Shown: positions 1-20,862 of the stretch, piece by piece | Layout of the letters: the number at the start of each line of letters is the position of its first letter | How positions within the stretch are numbered: position 1 is the first letter of the stretch | Translations under genes and position numbers: made by a program | Assembly: GCA_034117945.1 (NCBI GenBank) | Contig: JAXEOR010000005.1 | Coordinates: forward strand, 1 to 36,391 | Source of the DNA: Clostridia bacterium | GTDB lineage: Bacteria > Bacillota > Clostridia > HGM11514 | DNA: 36,391 nt | Direction of reading: 5' to 3' | Notes under the pieces: model-generated | Database searches by the model: none | What the model saw: only the letters and a program-made list of their open reading frames with translations | Told to the model about the DNA's origin: nothing

Positions 1-986
1 TTGTTTTACTGGGAAAAGCGGGTATGATGATTTGGGAATATAACGATCATACCTCGGAGGACAAGCACCAGGTGACGGTGACCGTTTTAGAGGGTGCTAC
101 AGTTGGTCAGATGGCTGACATTTTGAAGGATGCCGGCGTGATCAGATCTAAATTTGTGTTTAAGCGGAAGGCGGCCGCCTCTGAATACGGCCCCCTGCAG
201 TATGGAACCTTCACCTTGGATACCGGATGGTGCCTGGATGATATTATCAAAGTAATGGCAACCCAGGGAGCTCAGAAGGAAAGCTTTTCCTTTGTGGTGC
301 CGGAAGGGTATTCGGTAGAGCAGATCTGCGCCAAGGCGGTGGCCAATGAGATCTGCACCCAGGAGGAATTTTATGACGTGCTGGAAAACGGCTCTTTTCC
401 TTATGAGTTTTTAAATGAAATTCCTCAGGACAGGGAGGTTACCTACCGGCTGCAAGGGTTTTTATTCCCGGATACTTATTTGTTTGATTCGGATACGGAC
501 GCTTATGTGCTGATTGACACCATGCTGGCGGAGTTTGAAAAGCACTATCAAAATCTAAAAAATATCCCCTCGGATTATTCCTTTTTTGATATCGTAACGG
601 TAGCCTCCTTGGTGGAGCGGGAATCCAAGCTGGACGAGGAGCGGGCAACCATTGCCGGTGTGATTTATAATCGGATTCAGGAGAATATGCCCCTGCAGAT
701 TGACGCTTCTGTGGTGTATGCTTGCTCGGAGGGAATGTATGATATGGATCAGGTGTTATATGAGGATCTGGAGATTGATTCTCCCTATAATACCTACAAA
801 TATCCCGGTATGCCCGCAGGACCCATTTGCAACCCGGGGATTGCGTCTATCAAGGCGGCTCTGTTGCCGGAGCGACATTCCTACTACTATTATCACACGG
901 ATGAGGAAAAGCAGGACGGCAGTCATATTTTTACCGAAACCTTTGAGGAGCATTCCGCCACAATGACTTACGGGCAGGAGGAATAG
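1..986 (+). CDS. mltG: Endolytic murein transglycosylase MltG/YceG family, 5' end cut by window edge
   Basis: ORF 24..986 stays open in the same frame back to nt 3, so the N-terminal membrane anchor lies upstream. YceG hallmarks are present: ERESKLDEERATIAGVIYNRI, QIDASVVY, SPYNTYKYPGMPAGPICNPG. Confidence 0.9.
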   Translation, partial: VLLGKAGMMIWEYNDHTSEDKHQVTVTVLEGATVGQMADILKDAGVIRSKFVFKRKAAASEYGPLQYGTFTLDTGWCLDDIIKVMATQGAQKESFSFVVPEGYSVEQICAKAVANEICTQEEFYDVLENGSFPYEFLNEIPQDREVTYRLQGFLFPDTYLFDSDTDAYVLIDTMLAEFEKHYQNLKNIPSDYSFFDIVTVASLVERESKLDEERATIAGVIYNRIQENMPLQIDASVVYACSEGMYDMDQVLYEDLEIDSPYNTYKYPGMPAGPICNPGIASIKAALLPERHSYYYYHTDEEKQDGSHIFTETFEEHSATMTYGQEE

Positions 987-1065
987 GAAGCGGGCTGAAG
1001 GAACCGGATGGTTTTGGGGAAAATATGTAAGGCCTTTGATCGAAAATCAAGGCTGGCCTTAGAAG

Positions 1066-1108
1066 AAAAAACCGAAGCTGCTGTAAGCCGAGTGTTCTTA
1101 AGGACAGT
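1066..1108. repeat. Left arm of 43-nt imperfect inverted repeat bracketing the AT-rich GRE island (partner 5215..5257)
   Basis: aaaaaaccgaagctgctgtaagccgagtgttcttaaggacagt. Hand alignment against the reverse complement of 5215..5257 gives 37 Watson-Crick pairs, 4 G-T pairs and 2 mismatches. The inner 18 nt (1091..1108 vs 5215..5232) pair perfectly. Confidence 0.7.
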
Positions 1109-1136
1109 AAAAGGGGCTGAAAAAAATCCCCTAAAA
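1108..1136 (-). terminator. Weak hairpin plus T-stretch downstream of the activase gene
   Basis: On the minus strand, AGGGG-11 nt loop-CCCCT is followed by TTTTAC. The stem is only 5 bp. Confidence 0.3.
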
Positions 1137-1167
1137 CATTTTTACAGTCCCTTTAATTATTATTTCA

Positions 1168-2067
1168 TTACAAAATTTCAATAGTTATATTTGTTTTATC
1201 TCTCATATAATTAATAAATGGTGCTATGCTGTCGGCGGATAAAAATTCTCTATTCTGATATCCCTGTGTTTTTCCAAGTTTAATTGACTTATGAATTCCC
1301 AAAGGATGGTACGGTTCGATATGTATGGCGACAACATTCCTGAGTTCATTTGCGAGATTTGCAATCTTGTTAAAATGATTTTCCGTAAAATTGACACCAG
1401 GGATTATCGGGCAACGCAAGATGATTTTTGCCCCTATACTATCAAGATAAAAGAGGTTTATTAATATTTTTTCATTGGAAACACCTGTATACCTAATATG
1501 TTCTTTTTCAGAAAGCAACTTTATGTCATAAAGCCACAGATCAACATATTGAATTATTTCATTTAATTGTTTATAGCAATAACCGCTTGTTTCAACTGCA
1601 GTATGAACTCCGGCTGCTTTTGTTTTTTTCAGAATTTCCAAAGAAAAATCATATTGCATCAAAGGTTCTCCGCCTGAAAGTGTAATACCACCGCACGATT
1701 GTTTATAAAATTCTGCATCTCTTAAAATTTCATCCATAACCTCACCAACTGTTATCTCTTTTCCGCAGACTTCAAGTGCGTTGGCAGGACATTCCAAGAC
1801 ACATTTCATACATTTTTTGCAGTTATTGTGCAAAAAAATATGTTTATCGGTATCAAACATATGTTGCTTGAGATTGCACGCTTTTTCACACTTTCTGCAA
1901 TTTATGCATTTTTCTGAATCATAAAAAATTTCAGGACAAATGGATTTTGATTCCGGGTTGTGACACCATATACAAGAAAGAGGACACCCCTTAAAAAAGA
2001 CAACTGTACGTATACCCGGACCATCACTTGTTGAAAAGCGCTGAATATTAAATATATTTCCCGTCAT
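1168..2067 (-). CDS. Glycyl radical enzyme activating enzyme (radical SAM, PflA family) with two ferredoxin-like auxiliary cluster motifs
   Basis: N-terminal FSTSDGPGIRTVVFFKGCPLSCIWCHNPE (CX3CX2C). Auxiliary motifs are CINCRKCEKAC and CKKCMKCVLECP, plus GGITLSGGEPL. Its ATG (2065..2067) directly abuts the TAA stop of the upstream GRE (2068..2070). Confidence 0.93.
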   Translation of the reverse strand: MTGNIFNIQRFSTSDGPGIRTVVFFKGCPLSCIWCHNPESKSICPEIFYDSEKCINCRKCEKACNLKQHMFDTDKHIFLHNNCKKCMKCVLECPANALEVCGKEITVGEVMDEILRDAEFYKQSCGGITLSGGEPLMQYDFSLEILKKTKAAGVHTAVETSGYCYKQLNEIIQYVDLWLYDIKLLSEKEHIRYTGVSNEKILINLFYLDSIGAKIILRCPIIPGVNFTENHFNKIANLANELRNVVAIHIEPYHPLGIHKSIKLGKTQGYQNREFLSADSIAPFINYMRDKTNITIEIL

Positions 2068-4158
2068 TTATATTATATGCTCCGTTCTTAAAATCAACTC
2101 TTCCTGCATTTCAGGAGATAACTTTACAAAGTAATCACTGTAACCGCCTATTCTTACAACAAGGTCTTTATATTTCTCTGGATTTATCACTGCCTTTTCC
2201 AGTGTTTCTTTATCAATTACATTGATTTGCATTTCAAATCCGCCTCTTTTGAGATATGTTTTAATCAGGCTTTTCATGGTATCAAGAGAATGCCTGCCCA
2301 GTGACCTCTTTGAAAACTTCATATTTACTGCAATACCGCCGAGGAGTTCATGATGTGCCCATTTTGTAGAAGATAAAATAGAAGCGGTAGGGCCTTTCAT
2401 TTCTCTGCCCTGACACGGACCTGAGCCGTCACCGAGGGGGAAACCGGCTTTTCTGCCGTCAGGAGTTGCTCCTGTTTGTCTTCCGAAACGCTCATGCATA
2501 ACCCAACAAAAAACGCTTGGTATAAGATTTCCGTTTGTATGCATTCCTTTGTATTTCTTACATTCCGATATAATATGTTCCGTTATTTTCCCAAACAAGC
2601 AGTCAACTTCATCAATGTCGTTACCATATTTCGAAATAGAATTTAATAAACGCTGACTGAAAATTTCATTATTCTCAAAGTTACTGTCGAGTATCTTCTT
2701 AAACTCTTTGATGCTGAGTTCTTTCAAGTCAAATACAATTTGCTTTAACGCATACAAAGAATCTACCAAGTTTGCCATTCCTACGAAGCTTGGCATAATC
2801 CAGTTATATCGTGCACCACCCTGTTCAATATCTGTTCCGCGCTCAAGACAATCATCCACAAAACAGGAAAGAAAAGGATTCATTGAGTTTTCACTGCGAT
2901 ATTTTCTGTCTGCATTTTCGTTCTCAAAGTTACTTTTGATTTTAGCATCAAGGTTTGCAAACAAAGTTACTAATAGCTCACCCATGTCAGTGTATTCTCT
3001 GTCAAGAATATCAAGCAGAAGCTGAGGCATATTCGTATACGGACTTGCCACCCAGACATTTGAGGAAGCTACCGGCGTTATCTCCACACAGGTGCTATGA
3101 ATATAGCTGTGAGCTTCTTTTTCGGGTACACCATAGCATTTTAATCCTTTTGTTATAATATCATCGTTAAATATTGCCGGGTGTGAACAACCGTGTGATA
3201 TAATTTCGCAGGCTTTTTCCAGATACATGTCGTCCATCTCCTCAGTATAGCATAGCCCAACGGAGGGATAAACCAGTCTTATGTCGTCTACTACCTGCAT
3301 ACACATATCGGTGAGCTCATTTGCAACAATGTTATTGTTTTCGTCACGGCCTCCGACCATATAACCGCTCGACAAACCGTTCGGCACACGGTTGTTGATT
3401 TGTATTCCAAGGCAATTTAAAAGCAACTGTGCATATTCTTTTGTGATAACACCAGTTCCTATATCTTTAAGATAATATGGCAATAAATACCGGTCCGGAT
3501 GCCCCAACTGAAACTGCTGTGGACAATACCGGAAGGGGTTAAGAGAAAGACAAAAAGTAATAAAATGAACAGATTGTATTGCTTCGTAAAAACTTTCAGC
3601 AGGATTGGCAGGTACTTTTCTGCATATTTCTGATATTAGATTAAGCTCTTTACATCTGTTTGCATCCGTTGAATTTTCTGACAGTCTTGCTGCTTCGTCA
3701 GCGTAACGTTCTGAAAAACTTATAACTGCTTCAAGGCATTTTTTACATGTAAGATAAAATTTCTTTTTGCTATCATCGCAATTTAAGAGATAGATATTGA
3801 TTTTATCAATGATACCATTTAATCCGTAATTTAATATGAGTTCATAATCAACAGCCATATGTGAATCCTGACCGCTTCCTGCTTTTGCAGATTCCGCTTT
3901 TGCTATGTGCAAATACTTATTCAGCCATTCATTTTCTTCCTCATGCGATAGCTTATTATTGCATTTTCCCACGATAAGCTCATCTTCCGATATAGATGGC
4001 GTCAAGTTAGAAAATGCAAAACAAAAGGCTTCTGCATAGCGGTCTTCTTTTGATGTCTTTTGACTGTCACTATAACACTTGAAGAATTTATAAAAAAATT
4101 CATCATAGCAAATTACATTCTCCAAAGCCATCATGCGTAATTTCTTTATTCTTTTCAT
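2068..4158 (-). CDS. Compact glycyl radical enzyme (PFL-like superfamily, eliminase-type Cys-x-Glu loop), about 696 aa
   Basis: C-terminal glycine-radical motif VVRIGGYSDYFVKLSPEMQEELILRT. Thiyl loop is HSTCVEITP and the ATPDGR motif is present. Start taken as ATG 4158 (MKRIKKLR...), preceded by AAAGGA. The ORF-track start at 4230 lacks an RBS. Confidence 0.93.
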   Translation of the reverse strand: MKRIKKLRMMALENVICYDEFFYKFFKCYSDSQKTSKEDRYAEAFCFAFSNLTPSISEDELIVGKCNNKLSHEEENEWLNKYLHIAKAESAKAGSGQDSHMAVDYELILNYGLNGIIDKINIYLLNCDDSKKKFYLTCKKCLEAVISFSERYADEAARLSENSTDANRCKELNLISEICRKVPANPAESFYEAIQSVHFITFCLSLNPFRYCPQQFQLGHPDRYLLPYYLKDIGTGVITKEYAQLLLNCLGIQINNRVPNGLSSGYMVGGRDENNNIVANELTDMCMQVVDDIRLVYPSVGLCYTEEMDDMYLEKACEIISHGCSHPAIFNDDIITKGLKCYGVPEKEAHSYIHSTCVEITPVASSNVWVASPYTNMPQLLLDILDREYTDMGELLVTLFANLDAKIKSNFENENADRKYRSENSMNPFLSCFVDDCLERGTDIEQGGARYNWIMPSFVGMANLVDSLYALKQIVFDLKELSIKEFKKILDSNFENNEIFSQRLLNSISKYGNDIDEVDCLFGKITEHIISECKKYKGMHTNGNLIPSVFCWVMHERFGRQTGATPDGRKAGFPLGDGSGPCQGREMKGPTASILSSTKWAHHELLGGIAVNMKFSKRSLGRHSLDTMKSLIKTYLKRGGFEMQINVIDKETLEKAVINPEKYKDLVVRIGGYSDYFVKLSPEMQEELILRTEHII

Positions 4159-4186
4159 AACGAAATATCCTTTCTTTTTTTCTTGC

Positions 4187-4195
4187 ATTATAACA
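4187..4195 (-). promoter_or_regulatory. Candidate extended -10 promoter (TGtTATAAT) for the GRE-activase operon
   Basis: The minus strand reads catgTTATAAT about 25 nt upstream of the 4158 start. No good -35 box is present. Confidence 0.35.
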
Positions 4196-4264
4196 TGATT
4201 TATGATACAATAATAGTGAAAAAGATTCAAAATTATGTATTATCGTATCAAACGAGGCGGAGAA

Positions 4265-5119
4265 ATGGATATTAAATTTCATTGTGATTCAAAACAAAAT
4301 TTCAAAAATGAACATCAACAAGTTCGCGCATTTTTATATACTGATTATTCAATTGAACCCCATAATCACGATTTTTATGAGATGAATATTATTATGAAGG
4401 GAAAAGGAACGCATCAAATTGAGAATGCATGCTTCAGCGCGGAAACCGGAGACGTATTTATGATACCTCCAATGAGGATACATTCATATTACGACACCGA
4501 AGATTTAAATGTATATCATATTTTATTGCATAAGGATTTTATCAGCAATAATCAAAAGGAAAACTCAAGTATTCCGGGTTTTGTTCAATTTACTGAGATT
4601 GAACCATTTTTACGTCAGAATTTTTCAAAGAAAATGTTTCTACATCTTTCTCACGGACAAATATTGCAGTTAAAAACCGACTTAGCCTTTATTGAGGACA
4701 ATAGTGTTTATGATACAAAAGAAATGTTGCCTATAAAAAACCATACAACATGGAAAATCTTATATTGGCTTTCTGCCTTGCTTTTTGATCAAATATATGA
4801 TAAAAACAAAAAGACTTTGAATAAACATGATATTGAAATCATCAGAACTCTTGAATATATACATCAAAACTACGATAGTAAAATAACTATTGATTTGTTA
4901 AGTCAAAAATCGTTTCTTTCACGTTCGACATTTCTCCGTCGCTTTCGCGATGTATGTGAATGTACACCAATGGAATATGTAAACAGATACCGCTGTAAAA
5001 AAGCCCTGGAAATGATAGATAACACATGCTTTTCAAAAACAGAAATTGCATATCATTGTGGATTTTACGATTTATCTCATATGGAGCGGACAATGAAGCA
5101 ATTATGTTCATTACTGTAA
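4265..5119 (+). CDS. AraC-family transcriptional regulator (cupin-like N-domain plus C-terminal HTH), divergent from the GRE
   Basis: N-domain HNHDFYEMNIIMKGKGTH...GDVFMIPP. C-terminal AraC HTH is LSRSTFLRRFRDVCECTPMEYVNRYRCKKALEMI...IAYHCGFYDLSHM. Start is ATG 4265 after GAGGCGGAG. Confidence 0.9.
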   Translation: MDIKFHCDSKQNFKNEHQQVRAFLYTDYSIEPHNHDFYEMNIIMKGKGTHQIENACFSAETGDVFMIPPMRIHSYYDTEDLNVYHILLHKDFISNNQKENSSIPGFVQFTEIEPFLRQNFSKKMFLHLSHGQILQLKTDLAFIEDNSVYDTKEMLPIKNHTTWKILYWLSALLFDQIYDKNKKTLNKHDIEIIRTLEYIHQNYDSKITIDLLSQKSFLSRSTFLRRFRDVCECTPMEYVNRYRCKKALEMIDNTCFSKTEIAYHCGFYDLSHMERTMKQLCSLL

Positions 5120-5181
5120 CGAGCAGGGAAGATGTGTACCATCTTCCACGATTTTAGGATACTCCTAATACCTTATACAAT

Positions 5182-5212
5182 AAACCCCGAAACAAATTTT
5201 GTTTCGGGGTTT
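5182..5212. terminator. Bidirectional rho-independent terminator
   Basis: aaaCCCCGAAAC-aaatttt-GTTTCGGGGttt. This is a perfect 9-bp stem flanked by A and T runs. Confidence 0.75.
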
Positions 5213-5214
5213 AA

Positions 5215-5257
5215 ACTGTCCTTAAGAACACTTGGCATATGGCGGCCTCGGTTTTTT
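5215..5257. repeat. Right arm of the 43-nt inverted repeat (partner 1066..1108)
   Basis: actgtccttaagaacacttggcatatggcggcctcggtttttt. See the left arm for the alignment. Confidence 0.7.
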
Positions 5258-5269
5258 GCAGAAGGGAAT

Positions 5270-5298
5270 TTGACTTTTTGCGGAAATTGTGCTATACT
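5270..5298 (+). promoter_or_regulatory. Near-consensus sigma-A type promoter with no adjacent + strand gene
   Basis: TTGACT (5270..5275), a 17-nt spacer, then TATACT (5293..5298) with TG at 5290..5291. Confidence 0.5.
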
Positions 5299-5322
5299 AA
5301 AAAGAAAAAAGGGGCCTTCCCT

Positions 5323-5631
5323 TTAAAAATGATAAGGAACGGTAAACCGCTCTGCATTCAGGACGGGCAGGGGGAATTCCTTTGCCAGCAGGCGGAGCAT
5401 TTGATCCAGCTCGGTCGGATGATCGGCACTCAGTAAAATAACCGGAACAGCGTTCATTTCAGCAGCGCAGGCGATGCCCCGGCGCACCTCCTGCTCGAAG
5501 GTCTCCGGATCCTCGTTGGTGTCAAACACAGCGTACAGGTGCTTGGGGGGAGAGGGACGCATGTGAAACAGTAAAATAATCCCTGCCATGACTGCCAGCA
5601 GGCATAATGAAACAACAAAAGGGGACAGCAT
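5323..5631 (-). CDS. Hypothetical small membrane-anchored protein (about 102 aa)
   Basis: N-terminal hydrophobic helix SPFVVSLCLLAVMAGIILLF. ATG 5631 is preceded by AGAGAGGTG. I recognise no family. Confidence 0.55.
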   Translation of the reverse strand: MLSPFVVSLCLLAVMAGIILLFHMRPSPPKHLYAVFDTNEDPETFEQEVRRGIACAAEMNAVPVILLSADHPTELDQMLRLLAKEFPLPVLNAERFTVPYHF

Positions 5632-5710
5632 TGGGTTCACCTCTCTTTCAGCGGAATGTTCTGCTCTTATCTTATGCAGTATGATGGATTAATGTGACGG
5701 AGGAATGAGA

Positions 5711-9498: not shown

Positions 9499-10926
9499 AT
9501 GATCAAACAATTCTTTTTTGAAAAAGGCTTTTGGAGAGTGACTCTTCAGCTGGCTCTTCCTATCGCCCTTCAAAATCTGCTGGTGAGCTCCTATGTTTTG
9601 GTAGATACGCTGATGGTGGGGCAGCTGGGAGATGTGTCTTTGTCTGCGGTGGGCATGGCAGGGCAGTGGAACTGGCTGATGAATATGATTGTGTTTGGGG
9701 TTTGCTCCGGGGCGGCTGTTTTTTTTGCCCAGTATTGGGGGATTGGCGACCGGGAAGGAATTCAGAGAACCTATGGCATCAGCCTGAGTACTGTTTTGCT
9801 GATCAGCTCTTTGTTTTTTTTTACAGGGCTGCTGTTTCCGGAATGGGTAATCAAGCTGTTTAACCGGGATCCCATGATTGTGGAAACAGGAACCAGCTAT
9901 TTAAAAATTGCAGCCTTTTCTTATTTGGCGGCGGCGGTGAATACCCTCTTTTGCACCCTGCTCCGGTCAACGGAGGAGGTCAAGCTGCCTATGTATGTTT
10001 CCTTGTTTACCACCCTGTTAAACGCATTGCTGGATTATGCTTTAATTTTCGGTGCCTTTGGGCTGCCTGAGCTTGGCATTCGGGGGGCTGCGCTGGCCAC
10101 TTGTATTTCCGCCTGGAGCGGCCCCTTGGCACTGATTGCCGTTTCCTTTTTCCGCAAAAATATGCTGATTGCCCCTCTGAAAAAATTATTCGGCTTTACG
10201 CTGTGGGATGTGAATTTATTTTTCGTCAAGGCGGCTCCCATTATTTTTAATGAGGGCATGTGGGGCTTGGGCACTCTTCTCTTTAATATTATTTATTCTA
10301 ACATGGGGTATGAATATTATGCGGCGGTGACCATTTTAAAAACCTTTGAAAACATTGCATTTGTGTTTTTTGTAGGTTTGTGCAATGCTTGCTCGGTGAT
10401 GGTGGGAAAATCCATTGGAGCGGGGAAAATCAGGCGGGGTGTGGCCGACGCCAGGCGGTTTACCGTGATTCTTCCGCTGTTGGCTTTGGTGCTGGGCATT
10501 GTTGTTGTGATATTTCGCAGTCAGCTGGTTGGTATTTTTAATATGAATCACAACATCACCCAAAAAACAGTGGATTCTGCCAAGGTGATTTTGCTGATCT
10601 ACGGGCTACATATCGGGATCAGGAACATTCCTTATGTTCAGATTGTGGGGATTTTCCGCTCCGGGGGAGATACCGGCAAGGGCGTGAAATATGACCTGCT
10701 TTGCCTGTGGCTGATTTCCCTGCCCGTCACCTTTATCAGCGCTTATTTCCTCCATCTCCCTTTTCCGGTGGTGTACGCTTTGATGTACGTTTGCGAGGAT
10801 TATGTGAAATCCATTTTGTGTCTGAAGTATTTTAAAAGCATGAAATGGATCAAGCCCGTAACGGAGGAGGGTGTTGCGGGCTTGGCAGAGTATCGCTTGG
10901 AAAAGCACGGTTTTTTTGAAGAATAA
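9499..10926 (+). CDS. MATE family efflux transporter
   Basis: About 12 predicted TM segments. The N-terminus LALPIALQNLLVSSYVLVDTLMVGQLG is typical of MATE. Start is ATG 9499 after GGGGGAG. Confidence 0.9.
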   Translation: MIKQFFFEKGFWRVTLQLALPIALQNLLVSSYVLVDTLMVGQLGDVSLSAVGMAGQWNWLMNMIVFGVCSGAAVFFAQYWGIGDREGIQRTYGISLSTVLLISSLFFFTGLLFPEWVIKLFNRDPMIVETGTSYLKIAAFSYLAAAVNTLFCTLLRSTEEVKLPMYVSLFTTLLNALLDYALIFGAFGLPELGIRGAALATCISAWSGPLALIAVSFFRKNMLIAPLKKLFGFTLWDVNLFFVKAAPIIFNEGMWGLGTLLFNIIYSNMGYEYYAAVTILKTFENIAFVFFVGLCNACSVMVGKSIGAGKIRRGVADARRFTVILPLLALVLGIVVVIFRSQLVGIFNMNHNITQKTVDSAKVILLIYGLHIGIRNIPYVQIVGIFRSGGDTGKGVKYDLLCLWLISLPVTFISAYFLHLPFPVVYALMYVCEDYVKSILCLKYFKSMKWIKPVTEEGVAGLAEYRLEKHGFFEE

Positions 10927-11315: not shown

Positions 11316-14300
11316 ATGAGATATCTTGATGAAAAAGCGGAAAAAACGGTGTGGCAGTTAGAAAAATTAACCGTGAAGGAATGCACTGCTTTAGAAGGGT
11401 TTTACATAAAATTTTGTGACTATAAAAAGGACAATGAAATTCCCGAAGTGGATGAAAGCTGGGAGCCTCTTTCCTCCTTTCTGCCCCTTGAGGGACGGGA
11501 TATGCATTGCTGGATCCGGGGCAGGTTTCAAACCCCGCCGGCTCGCCCGGGAGAATATTACGCTTTGGAATTTGCCCAGGAAAATAAAAATTGCAGAATT
11601 CAGGTGCTGTTGTATTTAAACGGCGAAATGACCCAGGGGCTGGATGTGAATCACACCAGAACCTTTTTGGAGCCGGATACGGAATATGATGCGGCCTTTT
11701 ATTGCTATTTTGACCGTATTTCTCCCTATTCTGCCTTAACTCCCAAACTTGTGACGGTGTGCGAACGGACGGAGGAGCTGTATTTTGACTTTTTTGTGCC
11801 CTATGACGCAATGACCTGCCTGGAAAGGAACTCTGACGATTATCGGATCATCCTTCACCATTTAGAGCTGGCGGCCAATCTGATTGATTTCAGACAGCCC
11901 TATAGGGCGGAGTATTACGAAAGCGTGCAAAGGGCAAAGGATTATTTAAAGCGGGAATTTTATGAAAAGGAATGTGGAAAATCGGGCGTTACCGTGAACT
12001 GTCTGGGACATTCTCATATTGATGTGGCCTGGCGCTGGCCGGTGAGACAAACGGTAGAAAAGGTGCAAAGAAGCTTTTCCACTGTGATTCATTTGATGAA
12101 ACGGTATCCGGAATATTTATTTATGATGACCTCTCCTCAGATGTATCTGTTTTTAAAGGAACAGGCACCCCAGCTGTATCAGCAGGTGAAGGATCGTATC
12201 CGGGAAGGACGGTGGGAGGCAGAGGGTGCCATGTGGCTGGAGGCAGACGGAAATCTGCCCTCCGGGGAAAGCTTTGTCCGCCAGCTGTTGTTCGGAAAGC
12301 GGTTTTTTCAGCAGGAGTTTGGAGTGGACAGCAAAACATTGTGGATTCCGGATGTGTTCGGTTATTCCGCCGCTTTGCCTCAAATTCTGAAAAAAGCGGG
12401 AGTGGATCGGTTTGTGACCGGTAAAATCAGCTGGAACGATACCAATCGGATTCCCAATGACACCTTTTATTGGAAGGGGATCGACGGGACGGAAATTTTC
12501 ACCCAATTTTTAACCACCAAGGATTTTGTCAATCCGGACAAATCCCGGGAGTTTGTGATGATCAACGGCGCTATGGACGCCAGAGAAATTAAAAGCACCT
12601 GGGATATTTACAGAAACAAAGAGTATAATGACCAAACCATTCACACCTTCGGATTTGGCGACGGAGGCGGCGGCCCCACCTATCAGATGCTGGAGCGCCA
12701 GCGGAGATTTGCTTACGGAATTCCCGGAATTCCGAAAACAAAAATGAATACCTTGAGCAATTTTTTAGATCAGGCGGAGGAAAACTTTAAGGCCTCCTGC
12801 AAAACCTATCAGCGCACACCGAAATGGACGGGAGAGCTTTATCTGGAATATCACCGGGGCACCTTTACCTCCATGGCGAAAACAAAGCGTTTGAACCGGC
12901 AATGCGAGTTTGCTTTGATGGAAGCAGAGGGACTTTGCGCCTTGGATTTGGCTGTGAATCATCAGGCATATCCCTATCAGGAGTTTTGCGATATGTGGCA
13001 GCTGATGCTGCTCAATCAATTTCATGACATCATTCCGGGCAGCTCCATCAAAGAGGTGTATGATCTTTCAGACAAACAGTATGAATCCGTTTCTGCATTT
13101 TGTCACAAAACAGCCCGGCAGGCAAGAGAGCATTTTGCAAATAAGATTCAGTGCGGCAAGGGGTATCTGGTGTTTAATCCTCATTCCTATGAATGCTCGG
13201 ATGTTGTGGCAGCAGAGGGCAGCTTTGCTTATGCTCCCGCTGTTCCTTCCTTCGGCTACAAGGCATTTGACAGCCTGAGCTTTGAAAATCATGCCCAAAT
13301 AGGGGAGCGGTCTGTTTCTAACCGGTTTTTTGATATTCGTCTGGACGAACAGGGAAATATCGTGTCCTTGTTTGATAAAAGAAACGGTCGGGAAACTGTG
13401 TCGGGGCCGGCAAACAAATTTTGCGCTTATGAGGATATGCCTCGGTTTTATGACGCTTGGGAGCTGACCTATTATTACAAGCAAAAATGCTATGAAGTGG
13501 ATGAGTTGGTCAGCATTTCGGAATATCGGGACGGGGCAAAGGCAGGACTTACCGTTGTTAAGAAATTTATGGATTCTATCATGACCCAAAATATTGTGGT
13601 GTATGACGAAATCCCCAGAGTGGATTTTGAAACGGAGATTGACTGGAAGCAGGAGCATTTGGTGCTGAAAACCTTGTTCCCGGTCAACGTGTTTACCAAT
13701 CAGGTTACGGCGGAAATTCAATTCGGTCATGTGGAGCGGGCGACCCATTCTAACACCAGCTGGGATGAGGCCAGATTTGAGATGTGCATGCACAAGTGGG
13801 TGGATTTTTCTGATCAAGCTTATGGGGTCAGTATGCTCAATGACTGCAAATACGGGTTCTCTGCACAGGAAACCCTGCTGGGACTGACCATTCTGAAATC
13901 AGCCACCGATCCCAATCCTGAGGCGGATAAGGGGATTCATCATTTGACCTATTCCTGGTATCCTCATCAGGGACATGGGGTTGCGGGCGGCACCGTTCAG
14001 CAGGCTTATAACTTAAATCAAAAAATGACGGCAGTGAAAACGGAAGGGTCGGAGGGTGCTTTGCCCGCCCAAGCCTCCTTTGTCAGCTGCGATCGGGAGA
14101 ATATTATTTTAGAAACACTGAAAAGAAGCGAGGATGGCACGGGGCTGATTCTCAGACTGTATGATGCGTACAACACCTCCAGTGCGCCTGTGATCTTCTT
14201 TGGGTTTGATGTGAAGCGGTGCTGGCTGTGCGATCTGAATGAGCACAAGCAAACTGAGGCAGAGGTGAAAAACAGATCTGTCTGCATTCCGGTTCAGAAT

Positions 14301-16371: not shown

Positions 16372-16427
16372 AAAAAGGGACTGTAGGCAGTTCGATATGA
16401 TCAATCGGCTTGCTTACAGCCCCTTTT
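16372..16427. terminator. Bidirectional terminator-like hairpin after tepA
   Basis: aaaaaGGGACTGTAGGC-23 nt-GCTTACAGCCCCtttt. 11 of 12 positions pair, one of them G-T. Confidence 0.55.
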
Positions 16428-20820: not shown

Positions 20821-20862
20821 AAAAAATGACCCCCTCAAATATCAGGTTTTTGAGCGGGTCAT
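20821..20862 (-). terminator. Rho-independent terminator of the second GRE operon
   Basis: ATGACCCCCTCAAA-9 nt-TTTGAGCGGGTCAT pairs at 13 of 14 positions. It is followed on the minus strand by TTTTTTCTG. Confidence 0.7.

Follow-up and report, generated by a model that had tools for sequence, protein, structure and literature searches.

The stretch of DNA analyzed here, 36,391 nt of contig JAXEOR010000005.1 from a Clostridia bacterium (hereafter the window), begins inside mltG (YceG-like; 3–986, + strand; Pfam YceG, E = 4e-77), which is cut by the window start. Convergent with it at 5323–5631 (− strand) is a gene for a 102-aa protein with no Pfam family. Between the two lies a glycyl radical enzyme (GRE) island, by which we mean the DNA between two 43-nt arms read directly at 1066–1108 (AAAAAACCGAAGCTGCTGTAAGCCGAGTGTTCTTAAGGACAGT) and 5215–5257 (ACTGTCCTTAAGAACACTTGGCATATGGCGGCCTCGGTTTTTT). 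The island encodes a GRE activase of the radical SAM type with ferredoxin-like clusters (1168–2067, − strand; Pfam Fer4_12 and Radical_SAM), the GRE itself, 696 aa from the ATG at 4158 (2068–4158, − strand; Pfam PFL-like, E = 1e-109, and Gly_radical, E = 3.5e-25), and an AraC-family regulator (4235–5119, + strand; Pfam AraC_binding and HTH_18). An exact look-up of the 696-aa GRE returned no match. The first-pass annotation had described the island as AT-rich and devoid of any transposase, integrase or recombinase. Its composition agrees with this, with a G+C fraction of about 0.32–0.40 inside as opposed to about 0.48–0.55 outside, and a Pfam scan of all island open reading frames (ORFs) bore out the absence of these enzymes and likewise found no relaxase domain. 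The island carries no TnpV, a tblastn search with five recombinase homologues against the whole window gave nothing at E ≤ 1, and no Rfam family matched within 900–5700.

The arms are reverse complements of one another as annotated, with 37 of 43 positions in Watson-Crick pairs, four G-T pairs, two true mismatches (A·C and A·A) and a perfect inner 18 nt. Direct reading also upheld the G-U compatibility of the four non-Watson-Crick pairs and the outer ends of A6 on the left and T6 on the right, which prove to be the outer parts of the two halves of a host terminator. In a repeat search of the window the arm pair was the top inverted repeat, extending to 62 nt at 76%, and each arm half occurs in the window at these two sites only, where shuffled sequences lead one to expect 0. 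When joined, the arms fold with −61.4 kcal/mol (z = −12.8). Each 18-nt core is itself near-palindromic, 14 of its 18 positions being self-complementary.

An exact look-up of the 102-aa protein recovered ten metagenome contigs, five with the island and five without. The occupied contigs (L006, L007, L009, L012 and L015) match the window over the island and junction at 99.2–100% identity; the gene call for the GRE in L006 is likewise 696 aa, and the AraC length of 284 versus 294 aa in L007 and L009 is a gene-calling difference, the DNA being 100% (L009) and 99.96% (L007) identical to the window. In the five empty contigs (L008, L010, L011, L013 and L014), which come from metagenomes and belong to the same species, mltG directly adjoins the 102-aa gene, so that the empty-site comparison called for by the first-pass annotation could be made. 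The empty allele reads AGAAGAAAAAACCGAAGCTGCTGCATGGCGGCCTCGGTTTTTTTGCAG, with its arms as AAAAAACCGAAGCTGCTG-CA-TGGCGGCCTCGGTTTTTTT, and consists of an A-tract, a stem, a 4-nt loop, a stem and a T-tract. This hairpin folds with −22 kcal/mol (z = −4.7) and is called terminator-like by a consensus scan (L010 832–817). The features of an intrinsic bidirectional terminator are thus found at the empty site, between the convergent mltG and 102-aa genes, and the host target is, as predicted from sequence and fold, such a terminator. In the window this hairpin, the terminator of mltG, is split; the 102-aa gene has a terminator-like hairpin of its own at 5324–5308 in the terminator scan.

Aligned to the empty allele, each arm falls into three parts. 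On the left, A6 and the stem AAAAAACCGAAGCTGCTG form the left half of the host terminator (1066–1083), which corresponds to the B arm of an attL site, followed by a TA dinucleotide that we presume to be the crossover core (1084–1085) and by a terminal inverted repeat, AGCCG plus AGTGTTCTTAAGGACAGT (1086–1108, + strand), that resembles an attP half-site and agrees with the right repeat in 21 of its 23 nt. On the right, the terminal inverted repeat ACTGTCCTTAAGAACACT plus TGGCA (5215–5237, − strand), which fits the recombinase-side end consensus ACTGTCCTTWAGARSAC (see below) plus 6 nt more, is followed by a direct repeat of the TA (5238–5239) and by the right half of the host terminator, TGGCGGCCTCGG plus T6 (5240–5257), the B' arm of attR. 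The two host halves are contiguous with each other in all five empty contigs. The insert itself is therefore 1084–5237, 4.15 kb with TA at both junctions and 23-nt inverted ends. When the two element ends are joined through one TA they form a near-perfect palindrome of 48 bp, comparable in size and shape to a large-serine-recombinase attP site, in which 21 of 23 positions match per arm (−39.3 kcal/mol, z = −10); the rejoined host arms give a 38-bp dyad, which corresponds in length to an attB site.

We regard it as nearly certain that each 43-nt arm is a composite of 18 nt of host terminator stem, a TA core and a 23-nt element end, and that the element was inserted at this place. The first-pass annotation had offered insertion at the apex of a hairpin and terminal inverted repeats as alternatives, and both turn out to hold, each for a different part of the arm. 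The pre-existing hairpin is represented by the outer 18 nt of each arm, intact in the island-free contigs, and does not include the inner 25 nt; the terminal inverted repeats are the inner 23 nt, which recur at many element ends, and do not include the outer 18 nt of host sequence. Bidirectional-terminator architecture similarly applies to the outer 18-nt halves and not to the inner 25 nt, which belong to the insert. The expectation that removal of the island would leave one 43-bp hairpin is not borne out, since the empty site has a stem of only about 16 bp, and the arm is an element end rather than a common repeat unrelated to the island boundaries. These observations also bear on the idea that the arms are one ancestral hairpin in which the island was placed at the apex by illegitimate recombination, with no element ends involved. 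The very stable fold of the joined arms speaks for this idea, but it is refuted by the empty sites, which hold only the outer 18 nt per arm, and by the recurrence of the inner 18-nt core at element ends in dozens of unrelated loci, and we give it practically no credence.

The occupied and empty haplotypes share an identical 102-aa protein and differ at several flank positions (1000–1083 and 5240–5330) and by a 4–5-nt indel at about 5316, so that the island is tied to one of the species' lineages. Beyond the species, a scan of genome contigs for MltG found relatives at 45–82% identity only, of which the closest, L001 (82%) and L002 (74%), carry other DNA after mltG and so offered no empty site. 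A promoter-like TTGACT-17-TATACT lies just outside the right arm (5270–5298, + strand); as it is also present in the island-free contig L010 (792–764), it was not created by the insertion.

Scanning metagenome contigs with the 18-nt core gave 42 loci and, after removal of chance matches, 36 distinct genuine ends. About eight matches that lacked the outer GC motif and the A-tract were set aside as chance, as were those in three related viral contigs (L058–L060), where the 18-mer occurs once each inside an apparent conserved coding region with neither outer arm nor A-tract. Neither the island nor the end of the large element described next was matched in a plasmid collection. At about 25 distinct insertion sites the core is the exact end of a conserved module of conjugative or mobilizable elements, with a shared interior comprising a leader of about 110 nt with a terminator-like hairpin, a 64-aa ORF, TnpV (PF14198) and DUF6809, beyond which the cargo varies from copy to copy. 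One copy, on a 58-kb contig (L074), could be traced from end to end. This element is about 23 kb long, encodes a NikA-like protein, a relaxase and ParB, and carries at its far end the gene for a large serine recombinase of 566 aa, in which Resolvase, Recombinase, Zn_ribbon_recom and DUF4368 domains are recognized. Its recombinase-side end is ACTGTCCTTAAGAGGACCTTGCA, followed by AA and then host DNA, and its other junction reads host, AA, TGCAGAGTGTTCTTAAGGACAGT, so that the inverted arms are imperfect and AA is directly repeated. Homologues of the recombinase number in the thousands. One recombinase protein, P0028, was found in identical form in at least 9 different contexts, where the end is always ACTGTCCTTTAGAGCACCGCTCA followed by GA.

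Two further observations were made on these contigs. The 23-kb element encodes a 1006-aa protein (L074:4692–7712, − strand) with only a faint Pfam hint of an RNA-dependent RNA polymerase, and several other large ORFs without a family. In contig L037 two family ends 1.6 kb apart (10029–10046, − strand, and 11686–11703, + strand), the second of them diverged (GGTGTCCTAAAGGACAGT), face away from each other and therefore represent two separate insertions that bracket a short host segment; the interior of L037 yielded capsule genes only and no recombinase.

The same ends also bound small units without a recombinase. In the window, a conserved right-end module of about 125 nt runs from the AraC stop to the repeat (5112–5237) and includes a hairpin with perfect 16-nt arms (5181–5213). 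This module is shared, at 93% identity and up to the cargo stop codon, with a 1.9-kb unit in L052 whose single gene (a helix-turn-helix protein with an ADP-ribosylglycohydrolase domain) lies between AAAAAAAGACTACCGG and CCGGTAGTCTTTTTT, and it recurs at 91% identity at yet another site in L023. In L020, a non-coding unit of about 0.3 kb (2076–2380), bounded by AATAACCCCG and CGGGGTTATT, occupies the loop of a perfect terminator hairpin and contains a full-length Gut-1 RNA motif (RF01706) at 2274–2349 on the − strand, scoring 76.5 bits against a gathering score of 50. A copy of the GRE island itself, 92% identical over 1.7 kb, is found at another site in L047, a contig of 37% G+C, with its left end at the same position and a different flank (AAAAAACACCGCC, then TA). 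The window island has a subterminal hairpin, GGGGCTGAAAAAAATCCCC (1113–1131, − strand), read from the sequence as the likely terminator of the activase/GRE operon, and L047 has a different hairpin at the matching position. A simple terminator scan did not flag the hairpins at 1113–1131 and 5181–5213. They probably terminate the cassette's own genes, and they may partly replace the split host terminator.

It could be argued that the island is a decayed remnant of a full recombinase-bearing element that integrated, lost its core by deletion and is now fixed and immobile. Its attL- and attR-like ends and the lack of recombination and transfer genes do match the definition of a CIME (cis-mobilizable element; PMC5704250), all occupied contigs are at least 99.2% identical, and no excision products were seen in the assemblies of four pig-gut runs. 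On the other hand, nothing inside the island resembles the large element beyond the 23-nt ends, and the two ends share a single arm type, a result that simple internal deletion of an element of the L066 or L074 type would not produce. The GRE island copy in L047 and the reuse of the right-end module with unrelated cargo in L052 are also difficult to reconcile with a remnant. Taken together, the L047 copy, the module reuse and the arm types suggest that the small units move as such, and we consider decay unlikely.

The dinucleotide at the junctions distinguishes the element types. It is AA at every distinct TnpV-type site, GA at 9 distinct sites of the P0028 recombinase, and TA at both window junctions, at the L047 copy and beside the L023 right-end module. 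In the four complete elements (TA in the island; AA in L052, L020 and the 23-kb element) the same dinucleotide is directly repeated at both junctions. The core dinucleotide is set by the element type and not by the target. This bears on the possibility that the island is a mobile insertion cassette, or resembles a miniature inverted-repeat transposable element (MITE), and is moved by a DDE transposase, for instance an IS630/Tc1-like enzyme duplicating TA. Terminal inverted repeats of 23 nt, TA flanks at either end and the absence of an internal transposase would all suit such a cassette. A TA target duplication of the IS630 type was nevertheless abandoned, because related element types have AA and GA, and the constancy of these dinucleotides per type across many sites is the behavior of a recombinase core. 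Moreover, the potentially autonomous elements that share the ends carry a terminal large serine recombinase, and no DDE domain appears in their gene tables, in which several proteins are without a Pfam family. Movement by a DDE transposase therefore seems very improbable. The type-constant, directly repeated core, together with the 48-bp palindrome of the element ends and the 38-bp dyad of the host arms, matches the att sites of large serine recombinases rather than DDE duplications; an imperfect palindromic attP of about 50 bp, which such ends should give on joining, is what the island yields (48 bp).

We also examined the sites into which the family has inserted. An A-run ending 7–15 nt before the core is present in 33 of the 36 genuine left flanks, against a background of 6.6% in the same loci (P about 6e-36); the exceptions are L070, L017 and L050. 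In all 11 recombinase-side flanks a T-run begins after 8–16 nt of variable sequence that is mostly G+C-rich. With an A-tract and stem on the left and a stem and T-tract on the right, the landing sites are therefore terminator loops. For the three complete small elements the reconstructed targets are strong hairpins with the core in the loop, those of L052 and L020 being perfect. Most of the host genes beside the recombinase end are in convergent orientation and stop no more than a few tens of bases away, which fits terminators. In L070 (= L035; 3590–3650) a TnpV-type element stands directly after a complete hairpin, GGGGCATCTTCCTTACGGAGGATGCCCC then AA, and not in a loop. The window contains a second low-G+C block (16.4–20.9 kb; about 0.37–0.44) bounded by intact, unsplit hairpins (16372–16427 and 20821–20862), the left one unusually long (AAAAAGGGACTGTAGGCAG...CTTGCTTACAGCCCCTTTT). 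A search for the 18-nt repeat with up to 4 mismatches found no copy elsewhere in the window, including this block.

Insertion exactly at the center of a hairpin loop, together with near-palindromic 18-nt cores, might be taken to indicate a hairpin-specific process without a serine recombinase, such as an HUH or IS200/IS605-like enzyme, an IS1397-like IS3 element or the host Xer system. IS1397 and ISKpn1 are IS3-family insertion sequences that insert in the loops of repetitive extragenic palindromic (REP) sequences with a 3–4-bp duplication. They presumably resemble the island in entering a chromosomal hairpin loop and leaving its arms on either side, and presumably differ in enzyme class and in targeting a specific repeat family. 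The cassette encodes none of the enzymes named for such a process, none was seen in the large elements, the element ends do not appear to resemble dif sites, and a 2-nt direct repeat with 23-nt inverted arms fits the att sites of serine recombinases better. We rank this explanation marginally below the DDE transposase, as highly improbable.

The reading that we favor, and hold to be probable as a whole, is that the island is a non-autonomous cassette which sits in the loop of the mltG terminator and has been moved in trans by a DUF4368 serine recombinase. Its mechanistic component, mobilization in trans by a serine recombinase, is also likely, by a fractionally smaller measure, movement being deduced from sequence comparison. 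We infer that the recombinase acts on the island ends and does so in trans, and that the cassette has kept its mobility. In the mechanism that we propose, a DUF4368 recombinase of the TnpX/TndX type would be supplied in trans by a resident element of the Tn4451/Tn6104 kind, conjugative or mobilizable, whose ends match those of the island in sequence. The recombinase would bind both island junctions and cut at the TA with 2-nt overhangs, and subunit rotation and religation would follow. Excision would free a circle and restore the terminator; in the reverse reaction the circle would insert into another dyad of A-tract, stem, loop, stem and T-tract, the terminator serving as a generic dyad-symmetric attB.

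Several observations weigh against this reading. There is no recombinase in the 36-kb window. The TA core is self-complementary and so would not fix the orientation of insertion, and the island lacks a pair of unlike arms, its two ends both being similar to the TnpV-side arm. The loop of the empty site is CA, not TA; because the empty contigs represent a sister haplotype with several other flank differences, the exact pre-insertion loop of the occupied lineage is not seen. For the 23-kb element, the only large one that is complete, the target reconstructs to a weak hairpin (z = −2). Neither an excised circle nor an empty allele was found in the four island-holding pig-gut runs, searched as assemblies, which drop rare forms. 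Finally, the connection of the recombinase clade to these ends is a putative one, made by their co-occurrence on the same elements.

The partner elements are ordinary members of the Tn4451/Tn6104 type. They share the terminal DUF4368 recombinase, TnpV and relaxase with Tn4451/Tn4453 (TnpX), Tn5397 (TndX) and Tn6104–6106 of Clostridia. Like Tn6104, they show the same 2 bp directly repeated at the two junctions, and in TnpX-like elements with TnpV, of which Tn6104 is an example, the 2-bp flanking repeats are also found in the circle and the empty site (PMC3158075). DUF4368 marks a multi-targeting, TndX-like recombinase clade, one example of which has a TT core and A/T-rich flanks (PMC10083194), and the partner elements likewise insert at many sites. 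TnpX alone is reported to perform both excision and integration of Tn4451 (cited in PMC5704250). Terminators or hairpins are not mentioned in PMC10083194 or in PMC5704250, and a full-text literature search for them was also empty. The island has ends homologous to those of the partner elements and differs in having no recombinase, TnpV or relaxase; without the recombinase and relaxase it is not a member of the Tn4451/Tn6104 type.

With CIMEs the island shares attL- and attR-like ends, the absence of integrase and transfer genes and a presumed reliance on a related enzyme. CIMEs are described as decay products of tyrosine-integrase elements in a specific att site (PMC5704250), whereas the island has no internal remnant of a parent, and its ends delimit units of 0.3–4.15 kb whose cargoes are unrelated and which occupy many different terminators. 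Terminal inverted repeats, the absence of a transposase, passenger genes or none, and larger relatives with the same ends are found in MITEs and mobile insertion cassettes as they are here, although the enzyme likely to move the island is a serine recombinase, not a DDE transposase, and the 2 nt flanking the island are set by the element, not the target. The island meets the operational definition of a CIME, but its features are closer to those of MITEs and mobile insertion cassettes. A known cassette of the latter kind is MIC231, a non-autonomous element with the inverted repeats of an insertion sequence that is moved in trans.

Movement of the island as a cassette would explain how a metabolic operon of 32–40% G+C comes to lie in a genome of about 50% G+C without a mobility gene of its own. 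A wider proposal, which we make tentatively as a possibility, is that gut Clostridia harbor a whole class of recombinase-less cassettes, from 0.3-kb Gut-1 units to metabolic operons, each with two 23-nt attP half-sites and moved in trans by DUF4368 recombinases of resident conjugative elements that read bidirectional terminators as a universal attB. If true, this would be the serine-recombinase counterpart of MITEs and integron cassettes, with a landing site independent of the host genome. The movement in trans of att-bounded cassettes by multi-targeting serine recombinases is a route not covered in the reviews of mobilizable elements consulted, and it would turn the published "A/T-rich flanks" into a testable rule, namely crossover in the loop of a bidirectional terminator. 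Terminators offer sites in every genome at a low cost to the host, since each element brings hairpins of its own at either end. The finding gives the orphan Gut-1 RNA motif a genomic context, may matter for the use of these recombinases as integration tools, and bears on the flow of accessory genes in gut Firmicutes.

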